Part shown: positions 4,360 to 13,259 of the stretch, piece by piece
Numbering within the stretch: the first letter of the stretch is position 1
Layout of the letters: every line of letters begins with the position of its first letter
From: a virus
Lineage: Duplodnaviria > Heunggongvirae > Uroviricota > Caudoviricetes
Strand: one strand, 5' to 3'
Virus record (IMG/VR): IMGVR_UViG_2529292909_000010
DNA length: 15,937 nt
Made by a program: the position numbers and the translations under genes
The notes under the pieces: model-generated
Told to the model about the DNA's origin: nothing
Seen by the model: the letters and a program-made list of their open reading frames with translations, nothing else
Databases searched by the model: none

Positions 4360-4848
4360 TATCGCGCCCTCAACAATGAGTTTTGTGATGCGGTGCCTGG
4401 TGCCTCCAGGTGACGTTAACCAGTTAACAATTAACGCCGGATACAGAGAATCCAACCATAACACTGTTTTTGGTTTTAACTGTTCCGCGTGCGCTTAGCC
4501 GCATTCACCGCATCACAAAATTCACTTTAAAAAGGGCGGCAGAGCAGTCACGGAGTAAAACTGATACCGCCAAACGTCACCAGAAAATTGATAACAGAGG
4601 GCGTTGCAGCGGGGTTGTCACTTAAGCGTATGGTCAACCTGACAACCCGGTGTCCTCAACGGGGGAAGGAATAACCCCGCCATACTTACCGCCGCGCCAT
4701 TTCGCGGATTGCCACAACCAGAAGCGCACGGTCGAAGAAATTTAACGACAAGACTTATATGCAAAGGGATCTCGCCGTGCGCTTTCGTGTTATGCCCTGA
4801 CTTTTCAGGGTAAATTAACCTGTGGAAACCTGTTTTTACTGGCGCTAA

Positions 4849-9115: not shown

Positions 9116-9694
9116 ATGAGAGACATTGATGTAAGAAAGGCTGTGCATGCCAAGATTCTGAGAGATCATCATAAAGATCCTGACACCCTAATCATTGATG
9201 AGTTTACGATGAATCTAGGGGCTAGCAGAGCTGATATAGCAGTGATCAATGGGCTTATACATGGTTATGAGTTGAAGAGCAAGAGTGATAACTTGCTCAG
9301 ATTACCAGCGCAGGTGCAACATTACTCATCAGTGATGGATAAAGTAACTTTGGTTGTCTCTGATTGCCATCTTTATGATGCTTTAAGCATAGTTCCATCA
9401 TGGTGGGGGATAAAGCAAGTTACGCAAGGTGCACGGCAAGGTATCCATTTAAAAACAATTCGAACTAGCAAGTTGAATCCACAAGTGGACAAACTTTCCT
9501 TAACAATGCTTCTTTGGAAAGATGAATTGCTTTCCCTATTAAGTGATGTAGGGGAGCTACAGAATTTGAAAAATAAACCTAAACGCGTCTTATGGTCAAA
9601 ACTCGCCAATAGTATGGATGTTGGCGAGCTTCGTGAAGCTGTTCGAGTTAAACTTAAAGCCCGTAAAGAGTGGCGAGTTGCTCAACAACCTTAG
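9116..9694 (+). CDS. Putative PD-(D/E)xK-fold nuclease-like protein (192 aa), accessory cargo gene
   Basis: AT-rich ORF; motif arrangement E(IIDEF)...D(RADIAV)...E-x-K(GYELKS) fits a restriction-endonuclease-like active site; may belong to the family usually annotated 'sce7726 family' (unverified recollection). Confidence 0.6.
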   Translation: MRDIDVRKAVHAKILRDHHKDPDTLIIDEFTMNLGASRADIAVINGLIHGYELKSKSDNLLRLPAQVQHYSSVMDKVTLVVSDCHLYDALSIVPSWWGIKQVTQGARQGIHLKTIRTSKLNPQVDKLSLTMLLWKDELLSLLSDVGELQNLKNKPKRVLWSKLANSMDVGELREAVRVKLKARKEWRVAQQP

Positions 9695-10751
9695 TTATGT
9701 GATGGTTTTGCCCAATCCTACGCCATACCTCTGGGCTACCAAATTTATAGTTACCAGAGGGATTGGCTTTGTAGGCTTGATACTCGTTTGCATAATATTC
9801 TATGTCTCTATCTCCCGCACAGAATGTAGGCCCTGAATATTCTCGATGAGCAAGAATATCCTCACTATGTTTACCATATTGTTCATAACCAAAGCGATTA
9901 GCTACTCTTCCTCGAAATACCCAAAAGTCATTATCTCCAGAGTATCTGACGCTGGCAGATACGCTAGGGAATCGCGTCGAAAGCCTATTAAAGTCGGGGT
10001 GCTGTACTCCATAATCACTATAAATCACATTTCTGGCAAGTTCTTTTCTATTCATTAAACTCTGCCATAAAATCCACTCGATTCGAGGTTGAGAATATAG
10101 ACCAACAGAAATATCACTGAGATCTGTAGGAAATGAACCCCCAGAAAGAATCACTTTTCTGTATTCATTGAGGTGCGCCAGATTGTTTATCAATCCCATT
10201 GCCAAAGTATATAGTTCGCCGGAATTAATTTTATCCTCGGTTAACTCATCTCTTAAGTCAATAATTATATCAATATTTGATAAAGGAATTCCCAGATGAT
10301 TAATGTAATGCGTTATTAATTGTGGGTTAACCAGATCTAACGTGGTTAATCTCAAGCATATTTCATTCTGCATTAATTCATCAATCGCTCTTTTATAGTT
10401 AGATGGGCGAGTTGGTGAACTGACAGGAATAACTCTTATCCCCATATCTCTAACTTGATTAACCGCATTTATTATAGGGTAATGATCTTCAGGAGAAATA
10501 AAATGCTCTTCAATTAATAATCCATCAATATAAACACCTTGCATATCTGAGCAAGATTTTGAGACTTTCTTTCCGAACTCTATAAGAGTCTCGTTATAAC
10601 TCTTTAAGGCAATACCTGAATCAGGGTCAATTGGCACTGGTTCAATTTCGAGTAATGGCAAAATTTTTGATTTCTTTTCAATGGATAGCTGCGATAAAGC
10701 TGATAACTCAGAACGTTTCGCTTTCAGAATAGGAATATATGAAATTGTCAT
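9654..10751 (-). CDS. Large uncharacterised partner protein (365 aa), possibly P4 'beta'-family-like
   Basis: AT-rich ORF convergent with the 192-aa gene, 3' ends overlapping by 41 bp; no motif I can assign; the family assignment is an unverified recollection. Confidence 0.6.
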   Translation of the reverse strand: MTISYIPILKAKRSELSALSQLSIEKKSKILPLLEIEPVPIDPDSGIALKSYNETLIEFGKKVSKSCSDMQGVYIDGLLIEEHFISPEDHYPIINAVNQVRDMGIRVIPVSSPTRPSNYKRAIDELMQNEICLRLTTLDLVNPQLITHYINHLGIPLSNIDIIIDLRDELTEDKINSGELYTLAMGLINNLAHLNEYRKVILSGGSFPTDLSDISVGLYSQPRIEWILWQSLMNRKELARNVIYSDYGVQHPDFNRLSTRFPSVSASVRYSGDNDFWVFRGRVANRFGYEQYGKHSEDILAHREYSGPTFCAGDRDIEYYANEYQAYKANPSGNYKFGSPEVWRRIGQNHHITKVVEQLATLYGL

Positions 10752-11103
10752 GTTAATACCTTATACAGAATCAATTAACAATTAATGGTTCTTCGGACAT
10801 TGAAATTTATATCGCAAAAATTGGCAAACTCTCCTCGACTACTCACTTGTGGGTATCCTGGCGTAAAAGGAATGACTTGGCAATACCCGGTGTGATCATA
10901 AGTCATTGAAAATGATCATTTTTATCAGTCTTTCTTCCATGATGAATGCTAATGCCATTTGATTTGTTGAGGTGAAAACTGTTAAAAATCAAAACGATGT
11001 AATTGAAATGAACGTTCGGTAGCATTCACGCTTTAAATGTTTCTTTTGTGCTGATTGGATGAATTTGGGTCACTTCTGATGAGAGATGTTGCAGGAAAAG
11101 AAG

Positions 11104-11132
11104 TTGGCATTGATCTATTGGATAGTTAGAAT
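11104..11132 (+). promoter_or_regulatory. Putative hok mRNA promoter
   Basis: TTGGCA (11104-11109), 17-nt spacer, TAGAAT (11127-11132), just upstream of a leader (gcgggtgcttgaggctatctgcctcaggc) that resembles the remembered 5' end of plasmid R1 hok mRNA. Confidence 0.4.
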
Positions 11133-11308
11133 TGCTGCGGGTGCTTGAGGCTATCTGCCTCAGGCATGAACACCAAAAGGCAGATAGAGAAAAGCCCCAG
11201 TTAACATTACGCGTCCGGCAAGACGCTTAACATTAATCTGAGGCCAATTTCATGCTTTGCACATGTAGGTTAGCCTCTTACGTGCCGAAAGGCAAGGAGA
11301 AGCAGGCT

Positions 11309-11464
11309 ATGAAGCAGCAAAAGGCGATGTTAATCGCCCTGATCGTCATCTGTTTAACCGTCATAGTGACGGCACTGGTAACGAGGAAAGACCTCTGCGA
11401 GGTACGAATCCGAACCGGCCAGACGGAGGTCGCTGTCTTCACAGCTTACGAACCTGAGGAGTAA
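11309..11464 (+). CDS. hokD: Hok/Gef-family type I toxin (51 aa)
   Basis: MKQQKAMLIALIVICLTVIVTALVTRKDLCEVRIRTGQTEVAVFTAYEPEE: single transmembrane helix plus conserved C-terminal region typical of Hok/Gef; AGGAG Shine-Dalgarno before the ATG at 11309; the upstream leader resembles the R1 hok leader. The hokD symbol is from memory of the K-12 sequence and could be another hok paralogue. Confidence 0.85.
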   Translation: MKQQKAMLIALIVICLTVIVTALVTRKDLCEVRIRTGQTEVAVFTAYEPEE

Positions 11465-11476
11465 GAGACCAGGCGG

Positions 11477-11486
11477 GGGAGAATCC
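11477..11486. repeat. Target-site duplication, left copy (GGGAGAATCC)
   Basis: The identical 10-mer directly abuts both ends of the IS element. Confidence 0.55.
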
Positions 11487-12826
11487 CATAAGCGCTAACT
11501 TAAGGGTTGTGGTATTACGCCTGATATGATTTAACGTGCCGATGAATTACTCTCACGATAACTGGTCAGCAATTCTGGCCCATATTGGTAAGCCCGAAGA
11601 ACTGGATACTTCGGCACGTAATGCCGGGGCTCTAACCCGCCGCCGCGAAATTCGTGATGCTGCAACTCTGCTACGTCTGGGGCTGGCTTACGGCCCCGGG
11701 GGAGTGTCATTACGTGAAGTCACTGCATGGGCGTCAGCTCCATGACGTTGCAACATTATCTGACGTGGCTCTCCTGAAGCGGCTGCGGAATGCCGCCGAC
11801 TGGTTTGGCATACTTGCCGCACAAACACTTGCTGTACGCGCCGCAGTTACGGGTTGTACAAGCGGAAAGAGATTGCGTCTTGTCGATGGAACAGCAATCA
11901 GTGCGCCCGGGGGCGGCAGCGCTGAATGGCGACTACATATGGGATATGATCCTCATACCTGTCAGTTCACTGATTTTGAGCTAACCGACAGCAGAGACGC
12001 TGAACGGCTGGACCGATTTGCGCAAACGGCAGACGAGATACGCATTGCTGACCGGGGATTCGGTTCGCGTCCCGAATGTATCCGCTCACTTGCTTTTGGA
12101 GAAGCTGATTATATCGTCCGGGTTCACTGGCGAGGATTGCGCTGGTTAACTGCAGAAGGAATGCGCTTTGACATGATGGGTTTTCTGCGCGGGCTGGATT
12201 GCGGTAAGAACGGTGAAACCACTGTAATGATAGGCAATTCAGGTAATAAAAAAGCCGGAGCTCCCTTTCCGGCACGTCTCATTGCCGTATCACTTCCTCC
12301 CGAAAAAGCATTAATCAGTAAAACCCGACTGCTCAGCGAGAATCGTCGAAAAGGACGAGTAGTTCAGGCGGAAACGCTGGAAGCAGCGGGCCATGTGCTA
12401 TTGCTAACATCATTACCGGAAGATGAATATTCAGCAGAGCAAGTGGCTGATTGTTACCGTCTGCGATGGCAAATTGAACTGGCTTTTAAGCGGCTCAAAA
12501 GTTTGCTGCACCTGGATGCTTTGCGTGCAAAGGAACCTGAACTCGCGAAAGCGTGGATATTTGCTAATCTACTCGCCGCATTTTTAATTGACGACATAAT
12601 CCAGCCATCGCTGGATTTCCCCCCCAGAAGTGCCGGATCCGAAAAGAAGAACTAACTCGTTGTGGAGAATAACAAAAATGGTCATCTGGAGCTTACAGGT
12701 GGCCATTCGTGGGACAGTATCCCTGACAGCCTACAAAACGCAATTGAAGAACGCGAGGCATCGTCTTAACGAGGCACCGAGGCGTCGCATTCTTCAGATG
12801 GTTCAACCCTTAAGTTAGCGCTTATG
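11487..12826 (+). mobile_element. IS186-like insertion sequence (IS4 family), about 1340 bp
   Basis: Terminal inverted repeats cataagcgctaacttaagggttg (11487-11509) and its reverse complement (12804-12826); internal transposase matches the IS186 InsL sequence as I remember it; flanked by a 10-bp direct repeat in GC-rich target DNA. Confidence 0.8.
11542..12655 (+). pseudogene. IS186 transposase, apparently frameshifted (N-terminal about 67 aa in one frame, remaining about 330 aa in another)
   Basis: ORF 11536..11745 encodes the canonical N-terminus (MNYSHDNWSAILAHIGKPEEL...) then terminates; ORF 11654..12655 continues the protein (...QLHDVATLSDVALLKRL...) in a different frame; the junction is near gggcgtcagctcc (about 11731-11743), where one extra base relative to the remembered sequence would account for the shift. 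Confidence 0.5.
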
Positions 12827-12836
12827 GGGAGAATCC
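12827..12836. repeat. Target-site duplication, right copy (GGGAGAATCC)
   Basis: Identical to 11477-11486. Confidence 0.55.
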
Positions 12837-12883
12837 CTCGCCACCTCTGATGTGTCAGGCATCCTCAACGCACCCGCACTTAA

Positions 12884-12908
12884 CCCGCTTCGGCGGGTTT
12901 TGTTTTTT
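12884..12908 (+). terminator. Rho-independent terminator, probably the original hok transcript terminator displaced by the IS186 insertion
   Basis: GC-rich hairpin cccgc-ttcg-gcggg followed by ttttgtttttt. Confidence 0.6.
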
Positions 12909-12980
12909 CCTAGCATTCTGGTTTACAATTCGCACGCCAGCCTGAACAACTGGCACCTGCTGCGCCAGCAGAGACAACCG

Positions 12981-13259
12981 ATGGCGCACGATACCAAATT
13001 ACACAATTCTGATGATTCTGCCGTCTTTGCCAGCAGGCACGGGCGGCGTTCCCGCACTTTCAAATCTGACTGGTTCCAGCATCCCCCATGCACTGAAGAA
13101 CAGGCCGAGTGGCTAATTCAGTGCTACCGCAGACACGGATACGAGATTAAGAAAGCCCTCAGCCTCGATTATCGTCACTGGATAATCTCCGTCAGGCTTC
13201 CTTACTCCGAGCGCCCACCGCGTCCGTCCCGCACATTCCAGCAACGCATCTGGAGGTAA
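12981..13259 (+). CDS. Hypothetical small protein (about 92 aa from the ATG at 12981)
   Basis: The ORF extends upstream to 12852 but would then span the terminator; the ATG at 12981 is the first plausible start; sits where rem lies in Qin-type prophages (recollection). Confidence 0.4.
   Translation: MAHDTKLHNSDDSAVFASRHGRRSRTFKSDWFQHPPCTEEQAEWLIQCYRRHGYEIKKALSLDYRHWIISVRLPYSERPPRPSRTFQQRIWR

Follow-up and report, generated by a model that had tools for sequence, protein, structure and literature searches.

Does the hok-type toxin gene in this virus record still belong to a locus able to store and release toxin mRNA, or has the locus lost the parts on which storage would depend? The window (the whole stretch of DNA analyzed here, 15,937 nucleotides) is a lambdoid prophage of Qin-like type that has DicF at 4534-4585 and genes for replication, DUF968/ydfU, RusA, and an antiterminator. 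None of 5426 complete E. coli genomes had its exact configuration; ST866 matched best (82% cover at 97.6%, no IS186). An earlier note, made from the letters alone, had proposed a hok-type type I toxin locus at 11104-11464 that keeps its 5' regulatory region, and we analyzed this locus from its promoter to its terminator. The toxin is encoded by the inner of two nested reading frames.

11252 to 11464, plus strand: mok ORF of 70 codons that shares the frame of hok and gives an N-terminally extended Hok (open reading frame list)
11309 to 11464, plus strand: hok (hokD-type) toxin ORF, 51 aa plus stop (Pfam, K-12 hokD identity, RefSeq)

The 51-aa protein translated from the internal ATG at 11309, MKQQKAMLIALIVICLTVIVTALVTRKDLCEVRIRTGQTEVAVFTAYEPEE, matched Pfam HOK_GEF (PF01848) at 82.9 bits (cutoff 22, E 1.2e-23), which identifies it as a Hok/Gef-family membrane toxin. 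The hok coding DNA at 11309-11464 shows no difference from K-12 hokD, and the identical sequence carries the hokD label in RefSeq (WP_000813254.1). Matches occurred in 4726 of the 5426 complete E. coli genomes. At uninterrupted hokD-type loci, RefSeq annotates the hokD CDS only, with neither mok nor sok features, and a literature search for sokD and mokD returned unrelated word matches and no description of either. The region upstream of the toxin ORF contains a full set of leader elements.

11104 to 11132, plus strand: hok promoter, with -35 TTGGCA at 11104-11109, a 17-nt spacer, and -10 TAGAAT at 11127-11132 (consensus scan, collinearity)
11139 to 11150, plus strand: predicted hok mRNA 5' end (+1 at ~11139/11140) and tac, GGGUGCUUGAGG (start of the Rfam match, R1 +1 alignment)
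11192 to 11198, plus strand: ucb (anti-SD) box, AAGCCCC (MFE folds, first helix of the Rfam consensus)
11240 to 11243, plus strand: mok Shine-Dalgarno, GAGG, which precedes the ATG in nearly all loci of the hokC/hokD clade
11294 to 11299, plus strand: hok Shine-Dalgarno, AAGGAG, read from the sequence and overlapping the sok -35 on the other strand

The hok promoter scores 10 of 12 consensus matches and is the sole sigma70-like site in 10950-13000. One such match per 2 kb does not exceed the number in shuffled sequences (mean 1.9), and the promoter is credible because its position is collinear with the -10 of relatives rather than because of the scan count. Its -10 aligns with TATAAT in hokC, TATGAT in R1-like loci, and TAGGAT in hokB, and the conserved 5' end GGGTGCTTGAGG follows after 6-8 nt. 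The R1 +1 that we used for alignment follows the numbering in PMC9841398. The Rfam model RF01794 ("sok") covers 11139-11314 at full length (119.8 bits, gathering 59, E 2.6e-27). The strand of this model is not that of Sok, as in K-12 it matches the hokC-sense strand and the annotated sokC lies on the opposite one; the match therefore marks the hok mRNA leader. These findings bear out much of what the earlier note had read in the letters: a plausible sigma70 promoter (as a prediction), a leader resembling the R1 hok mRNA 5' end, and, with the HOK_GEF score and K-12 hokD coding identity, a hok-type type I toxin locus whose coordinates are accurate from the -35 to the stop codon and whose features stand well above chance.

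Consistent with the leader assignment, the mok Shine-Dalgarno of R1 is also described as GAGG (PMC9841398), and the hok Shine-Dalgarno of the window sits in the invariant CAAGGAGAAG block of the family alignment. Predicted folds place ucb, whose pairing model is described in PMC9841398, with the mok Shine-Dalgarno region (GGC at 11242-11244) in a closed fold and with tac in an open fold; tac in turn has two predicted partners, the downstream fbi element in the reconstructed mRNA and ucb once the RNA is truncated. The window and K-12 hokD are homologous only from near 11294 on, ~15 nt before the hok ATG, and K-12 has relE upstream. The window therefore keeps the promoter, tac, ucb, mok start, and sok region that are absent from K-12 hokD, and the contrast that the earlier note had drawn with the truncated K-12 hokD/relF stands.

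A sok-like antisense RNA had been expected on the minus strand around 11200-11300, and we can place a candidate roughly there, running from 11260 to ~11184.

11184 to 11260, minus strand: predicted Sok RNA (~77 nt), collinear with annotated K-12 sokC, sokB, and sokE
11267 to 11295, minus strand: predicted sok promoter, with -35 TTGCCT (complement of 11290-11295), 17 nt, -10 TAACCT (complement of 11267-11272), and +1 G at 11260

The minus strand above 11260 reads CTCCTTGCCT, 17 nt, TAACCT, ACATGT, and then the G, collinear with the 5' flanks of sokC, sokB, and sokE, and this predicted promoter is conserved across the clade loci. The promoter hexamers are weak and fell below the threshold of our consensus scan; we placed the promoter by homology. 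The predicted 3' end at ~11184 aligns with that of sokC, and the predicted Sok is 18 nt longer than sokC because its hairpin has a self-complementary extension. At its 5' end, the RNA would be single-stranded and complementary to the mok start; a long terminator hairpin would follow, and then a U-rich tail. The 78-nt stretch at 11183-11260 folds at -30.2 kcal/mol (z = -4.9).

Downstream of the toxin ORF, the locus is interrupted by an insertion sequence.

11487 to 12826, plus strand: IS186/IS421 (IS4 family) element, 1340 bp, with its transposase in the direction of hok (inverted repeats, duplication)
11477 to 11486, no strand: left copy of the target-site duplication, GGGAGAATCC, 10 bp
12827 to 12836, no strand: right copy of the target-site duplication, GGGAGAATCC, 10 bp

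IS186 begins 22 nt past the hok stop and is bounded by perfect 23-bp terminal inverted repeats, CATAAGCGCTAACTTAAGGGTTG, at 11487-11509 and 12804-12826. The duplication lies within GGGGGAGAATCCC, a G-run/N/C-run target of the form that SaiSree et al. reportedly gave in 2001 as the IS186 target consensus. Three internal positions distinguish the element from K-12 IS186A, and its transposase gene is not intact, as an extra G at 11733 results in ORFs at 11536-11745 and 11654-12655. After deletion of IS186 and one copy of the duplication, the remaining sequence is 100% identical over 570 nt to the uninterrupted hokD-type prophage locus of E. coli ST866 (NZ_CP077646.1), which has the same flanking genes and differs in lacking IS186. 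IS186 thus arrived by a clean transposition. The end coordinate of the earlier note, 11464, stops 22 nt short of the element.

The insertion separates the toxin ORF from the elements that would form the 3' end of its mRNA.

11472 to 11486, plus strand: terminal stem-loop, 5' arm, loop, and first 3 nt of the 3' arm, cut by IS186 (reconstructed fold)
12837 to 12842, plus strand: remainder of the 3' arm of the terminal stem-loop, CTCGCC, displaced (reconstructed fold)
12863 to 12875, plus strand: fbi (fold-back inhibition) element, CCUCAACGCACCC, complementary to tac and 1.35 kb from the ORF
12882 to 12909, plus strand: original intrinsic terminator of the full-length hok mRNA, also in K-12 hokD (terminator scan)

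The terminator has a 7-bp stem (five G-C pairs) followed by a T-run, and the IS-free mRNA that we reconstructed ends there at a length of 421 nt. In this RNA, tac at 11139-11150 is predicted to pair with fbi at 12863-12875 in the MFE structure with P ~1, the mok Shine-Dalgarno region with 11194-11196 (ucb), and 11472-11486 together with 12837-12842 to form a 9-bp G+C-rich hairpin; structure prediction thus recovers the tac, ucb, and fbi pairings. Relatives support the tac-fbi pairing, as nearly all loci, across genera, have a tac-complementary segment 45-50 nt past the stop, and two tac positions show compensatory changes, U-A to C-G at 4 and G-C to A-U at 12. In the window, IS186 lies in the 3' arm of the terminal hairpin and has pushed fbi and the terminator to 1.35 kb downstream, so that the terminal hairpin, fbi, and terminator are not contiguous with the ORF in an mRNA of ~400 nt. 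The terminal hairpin region folds at -18.3 kcal/mol when intact, and its hok side at -8.4 kcal/mol with only a 4-bp hairpin remnant. Of four transcript ends tested, three (11486, 11560, and 11900) gave RNAs with a predicted open fold, in which the 5' end pairs with ucb at 11192-11198, and the fourth (11700) gave a predicted local 5' hairpin instead. The earlier picture of an intact locus is consequently not supported at the 3' side, where IS186 cuts the terminal hairpin 22 nt after the stop and leaves fbi and the terminator 1.35 kb off.

Taken together, these analyses suggest how the locus would have worked before the insertion and what would have changed. The promoter at 11104-11132 would produce an mRNA from ~11139 carrying tac, ucb, the Sok target, the mok start, and hok, and the sok promoter a ~77-nt minus-strand RNA overlapping the mok start. 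In an uninterrupted copy, end pairing of tac and fbi would lock the full-length mRNA in a stable, untranslatable, and Sok-resistant form, and slow 3' trimming to the terminal hairpin would allow tac-ucb pairing and free the mok Shine-Dalgarno. Translation would then become possible, as would Sok binding followed by RNase III cleavage. Transcripts of the interrupted copy that end within IS186 would have neither the closed fold nor the protective 3' hairpin; they would probably be open, short-lived, and continuously neutralized by Sok, and toxin mRNA would no longer be stored for delayed killing.

This scheme draws on R1, where the closed tac-fbi fold supplies a stable inert mRNA pool and the terminal stem protects the processed mRNA (PMC9841398). 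Toxicity was lost in R1 with 19 single substitutions, each breaking a C-G pair of the terminal stem, and both of these mutants that were examined, G345A and C358A, lacked the truncated mRNA (PMC9841398). By analogy with the fold-dependent pool and stem protection of R1, the IS copy would be unable to store toxin mRNA. The promoters, the RNA ends, and the site inside IS186 at which hok transcripts stop are predictions. With fairly high confidence, we regard the window as carrying a hokD-type hok/mok/sok type I TA locus of a Qin-like lambdoid prophage that is complete by descent, is split by IS186, and would no longer store toxin mRNA. The hok locus is thus probably crippled by IS186. Crippled is not the same as silent, since K-12 gef/hokC with a downstream IS186 reportedly continues to be transcribed and to be under Sof regulation. 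We would expect a functional likeness to the IS-inactivated hokC (gef/sof) and hokE of K-12. Uninterrupted chromosomal hok loci failed in tests of post-segregational killing (preprint 10.1101/2025.08.07.668861), and the ancestral function of the window copy is therefore uncertain.

The same K-12 precedent for transcription and Sof regulation despite IS186 is among the points that favor a reading in which the TA pair works despite the insertion, with a translatable mRNA under constant Sok repression and release of the toxin upon loss of Sok, for instance when phage shuts off transcription. The 5' elements are intact throughout, as are mok, hok, and the predicted sok promoter. The interrupted transcripts mostly take the open tac-ucb fold in our predictions, and overexpressed HokD has been reported to be toxic (preprint 10.1101/2025.08.07.668861). 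However, the protective terminal hairpin is destroyed, and in R1 single stem substitutions are sufficient to abolish active mRNA and toxicity (PMC9841398). Without a closed full-length fold, there would be no long-lived mRNA to outlast Sok, and rifampicin did not activate even intact chromosomal hok loci (preprint 10.1101/2025.08.07.668861). We consider a working pair possible but rather unlikely, and a split locus that would not store toxin mRNA remains our preferred reading.

The reading frame of mok raises a second alternative, in which the in-frame arrangement is functionally special and gives, as the 70-aa Mok-Hok fusion, a toxin isoform of its own with a role beyond that of a leader opening the hok start. 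As the earlier note had stated, the upstream ATG at 11252, that of mok, is in frame with hok; it lies exactly 57 nt (19 codons) before the hok ATG, its frame is open through hok, and the fusion contains the whole HOK_GEF domain. The note was also correct that mok of R1 is out of frame: typical R1-like loci (L010 and L011) have an offset of 58 nt and a 70-aa Mok in a frame other than that of hok, in agreement with PMC9841398, in which mok starts at 116-118 and the hok start codon lies at G176, and T315A is a stop in mok but Y48N in Hok. A plasmid locus (L004) whose Hok is 100% identical to that of R1 and whose mok is in frame (57 nt) was set aside as a representative of R1, being a rare variant with 6 records at an identity of at least 99%.

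The in-frame mok did not prove to be the oddity that the earlier note implied. The K-12 mokC shares its stop with hokC at the same 57-nt offset, the mokA pseudogene shares its end with hokA, and mokB is out of frame. We examined 42 distinct loci of the hokC/hokD clade, from Escherichia, Kluyvera, Photorhabdus, Pantoea, Citrobacter, and others (single-protein query). An ATG is present in frame at -57, preceded by GAGG, in 28 of these loci and out of frame at -58 in 8, including one (L014) that encodes an identical HokD; the remaining 6 loci have neither offset and include one K-12-like truncated copy. By sequence comparison, the mok-hok frame flips through a 1-nt indel while the toxin is unchanged. 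In R1, it is that mok is translated, and not the Mok product, that counts (PMC9841398), and a frame that varies between 57 and 58 nt even with identical toxins therefore fits this view. Retention of the in-frame -57 arrangement in 28 of 42 loci across Escherichia, Photorhabdus, Pantoea, and Citrobacter would be expected of a fusion isoform. Nevertheless, the 8 loci at -58, L014 with its identical HokD among them, argue that the extension is not kept as a protein; the residues conserved in the extension lie over the predicted sok promoter and the hok Shine-Dalgarno, which are nucleic-acid constraints, and the R1 result that the Mok product does not matter (PMC9841398) points the same way. We thus find a separate fusion isoform very unlikely and treat mok as part of the leader of the split hok/mok/sok locus.

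A third alternative is that transcription crosses all of IS186 to the original terminator and that the resulting 1.77-kb RNA folds back, so that regulation is essentially kept. Our terminator scan of the plus strand found no convincing intrinsic terminator inside IS186, leaving no strong barrier of this type to such a transcript, and in MFE and partition-function predictions for the 1771-nt read-through RNA, tac-fbi pairing is still favored with P ~1. However, a fold-back across 1.7 kb competes with cotranscriptional local folding, and ~1.1 kb of untranslated, frameshifted transposase sequence should favor Rho termination and endonucleolytic cleavage. Even in a full read-through RNA, 3' trimming could not halt beside hok because the terminal hairpin is split. 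Furthermore, the K-12 gef mRNA has been reported to end ~200 bp past the stop inside IS186, although the IS is in the opposite orientation there. Preserved regulation by read-through is accordingly highly improbable in our judgment. That the small ORF and its leader are a chance resemblance and no true gene is practically excluded by the Rfam (E 2.6e-27) and Pfam (E 1.2e-23) scores and by the 4726 complete E. coli genomes (of 5426) that have a match, with nothing but the small size of the ORF in favor of it.

We compared the split locus with known systems. The closest paralogue is K-12 hokC/mokC/sokC (gef/sof), with a Hok that is 82% identical and a leader that scores 118.3 bits with Rfam. Like the window, hokC has mok in frame at 57 nt, a collinear sok promoter and 5' end, and an IS186 (IS186A) ~19-22 nt past the stop in the same G-run/C-run hairpin, with a 10-bp duplication. 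In contrast, its IS186 points the other way relative to hok, its leader and Sok are 18 nt shorter than those of the window, and it is chromosomal, beside nhaA, rather than in a prophage. The K-12 hokE/sokE locus has IS186B ~18-21 nt past the stop at GGGGAGTAATCC in the same orientation as in the window, but HokE is only 36% identical, and the locus has no annotated mok and lies outside a prophage.

K-12 hokD (relF), in the Qin cryptic prophage, shares with the window an identical hok CDS, the 3' hairpin, fbi, the terminator, and the downstream prophage genes DUF968/ydfU. In K-12, however, everything above ~-15, including the promoter, tac, ucb, mok start, and sok, has been lost and replaced by relBE. 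The two copies thus carry complementary lesions, with K-12 hokD keeping its 3' end and the window keeping its 5' end, the 3' end having been displaced by IS186. R1 hok/mok/sok (parB) has the same tac, ucb, mok Shine-Dalgarno, Sok target, hok, terminal hairpin, and fbi, and RF01794 matches both loci. R1 differs in its out-of-frame mok (58 nt) and its Hok, which is 39% identical, and in being uninterrupted, plasmid-borne, and proven in post-segregational killing.

The insertion in the window is one of several at corresponding positions. The hokC, hokE, and hokD-type insertions all lie in a G-run/spacer/C-run hairpin (GGCGGGGAGTGATCC, TGCGGGGAGTAATCC, and GGCGGGGGAGAATCC), and strain PSS-08-1 has an independent IS186 insertion at the same hokD-type hairpin with an 11-bp duplication and a different leader allele. 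The original description of the IS-inactivated hok loci of K-12 is said to be that of Pedersen and Gerdes in Mol Microbiol in 1999. A query of the hok 3' end plus the IS186 left end, at a cover of at least 80%, gave hok-IS186 junctions in as many as 939 of the 5426 complete E. coli genomes, a count that is an upper estimate because nearby pieces were joined. The IS186 at hokC is presumed in PMC3562002 to interfere with fbi and with the processing of the mRNA. These observations raise the idea that the G+C-rich hok hairpin is a preferred landing site for IS186 and that IS186 recurrently, and perhaps under selection, switches off hok toxins on chromosomes and in prophages, which we regard as quite unlikely. 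If it were true, the hok promoter could feed transcription of the transposase in the orientation found here and at K-12 hokE.

The hok/mok/sok locus of the window is an already known kind of element in an already known kind of disrupted state, and enrichment of hok in prophages has already been reported (preprint 10.1101/2025.08.07.668861). Its significance is small beyond correct annotation. Because RefSeq marks only the hokD CDS, a copy such as this one can be mistaken for an intact TA system even though IS186 has removed its 3' regulatory module. Independent insertions cannot separate selection from simple target preference. The repeated hits on hok hairpins illustrate how the target preference of an insertion sequence can disable one gene family again and again.

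Relative to hokC and to the Rfam consensus, the Sok-target hairpin of the window's hok locus carries an 18-nt self-complementary extension, CGCGTCCGGCAAGACGCT, at 11208-11225 on the plus strand. With this extension, the hairpin of the leader is longer, and so is the terminator stem of Sok. Across the surveyed hokC/hokD-clade loci, leader length separates hokD-type loci (~170 nt) from those of the hokC type (~150 nt).

TACG is a TadA editing motif. The Tyr47 codon of the window's hok, TAC, is followed by G, forming TACG at 11447-11450 on the plus strand; taking this as the motif, this hok copy has sequence suited to TadA editing at Tyr47. For the mRNAs of hokC, hokD, and hokE, A-to-I editing by TadA is reported to lead to recoding to the conserved second cysteine (preprint, 10.1101/2025.08.07.668861).

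Features elsewhere in the window include:

4534-4585, minus strand: full-length DicF sRNA (Rfam RF00039, 76.7 bits)
9116-9694, plus strand, and 9654-10751, minus strand: convergent, overlapping genes 5' of hok

The presence of full-length DicF identifies the window as a Qin/dicB-type lambdoid prophage. The convergent pair is separated from the hok promoter by ~350 nt. One gene of the pair matched Pfam Beta_protein (178 bits) and PADLOC PD-Lambda-2_C (E 1.8e-41), while its partner matched PADLOC 'cll' (E 2.4e-28) and has relatives annotated as 'sce7726 family'. The pair may constitute a prophage-borne anti-phage defence cassette adjoining the hok locus.

On comparison with both K-12 IS186A and the copy in PSS-08-1, a strain with an independent IS186 insertion at the same hokD-type hairpin, the IS186 copy at 11487-12826 in the window was found to contain a 1-bp insertion, an extra G at 11733, that breaks the transposase into two ORFs (11536-11745 and 11654-12655). 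Sequence comparison also revealed AG in place of GA at 11703-11704, and this copy additionally carries an M-to-V substitution. Because the insertion splits the transposase, the element is probably immobile, barring complementation in trans; the alternative is a sequencing error at the extra G.

Among genome contig matches, another E. coli (L015) has a K-12-like truncated hokD with relE-side sequence where the leader would be, and a Kluyvera sp. contig (L036) has a diverged hok whose upstream sequence closely resembles this relE side. Near-identical hokD sequences were also present in a 275-bp contig of Acinetobacter idrijaensis (L026) and a 431-bp contig of Xanthomonas pisi (L031); these very short contigs from non-enterobacterial assemblies look like contamination with E. 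coli or phage DNA.

The relationship between the mok and hok frames was altered in one plasmid locus:

NZ_CP128973.1 (pMTY1886_IncFII), 544-759: L004, a rare R1-type plasmid hok allele

In L004, ATGTCTGACAAC replaces ATGTCTAGTCCAC after the mok ATG, thereby placing mok in frame with hok. Thus, the mok/hok frame relation can flip even inside the R1 lineage.
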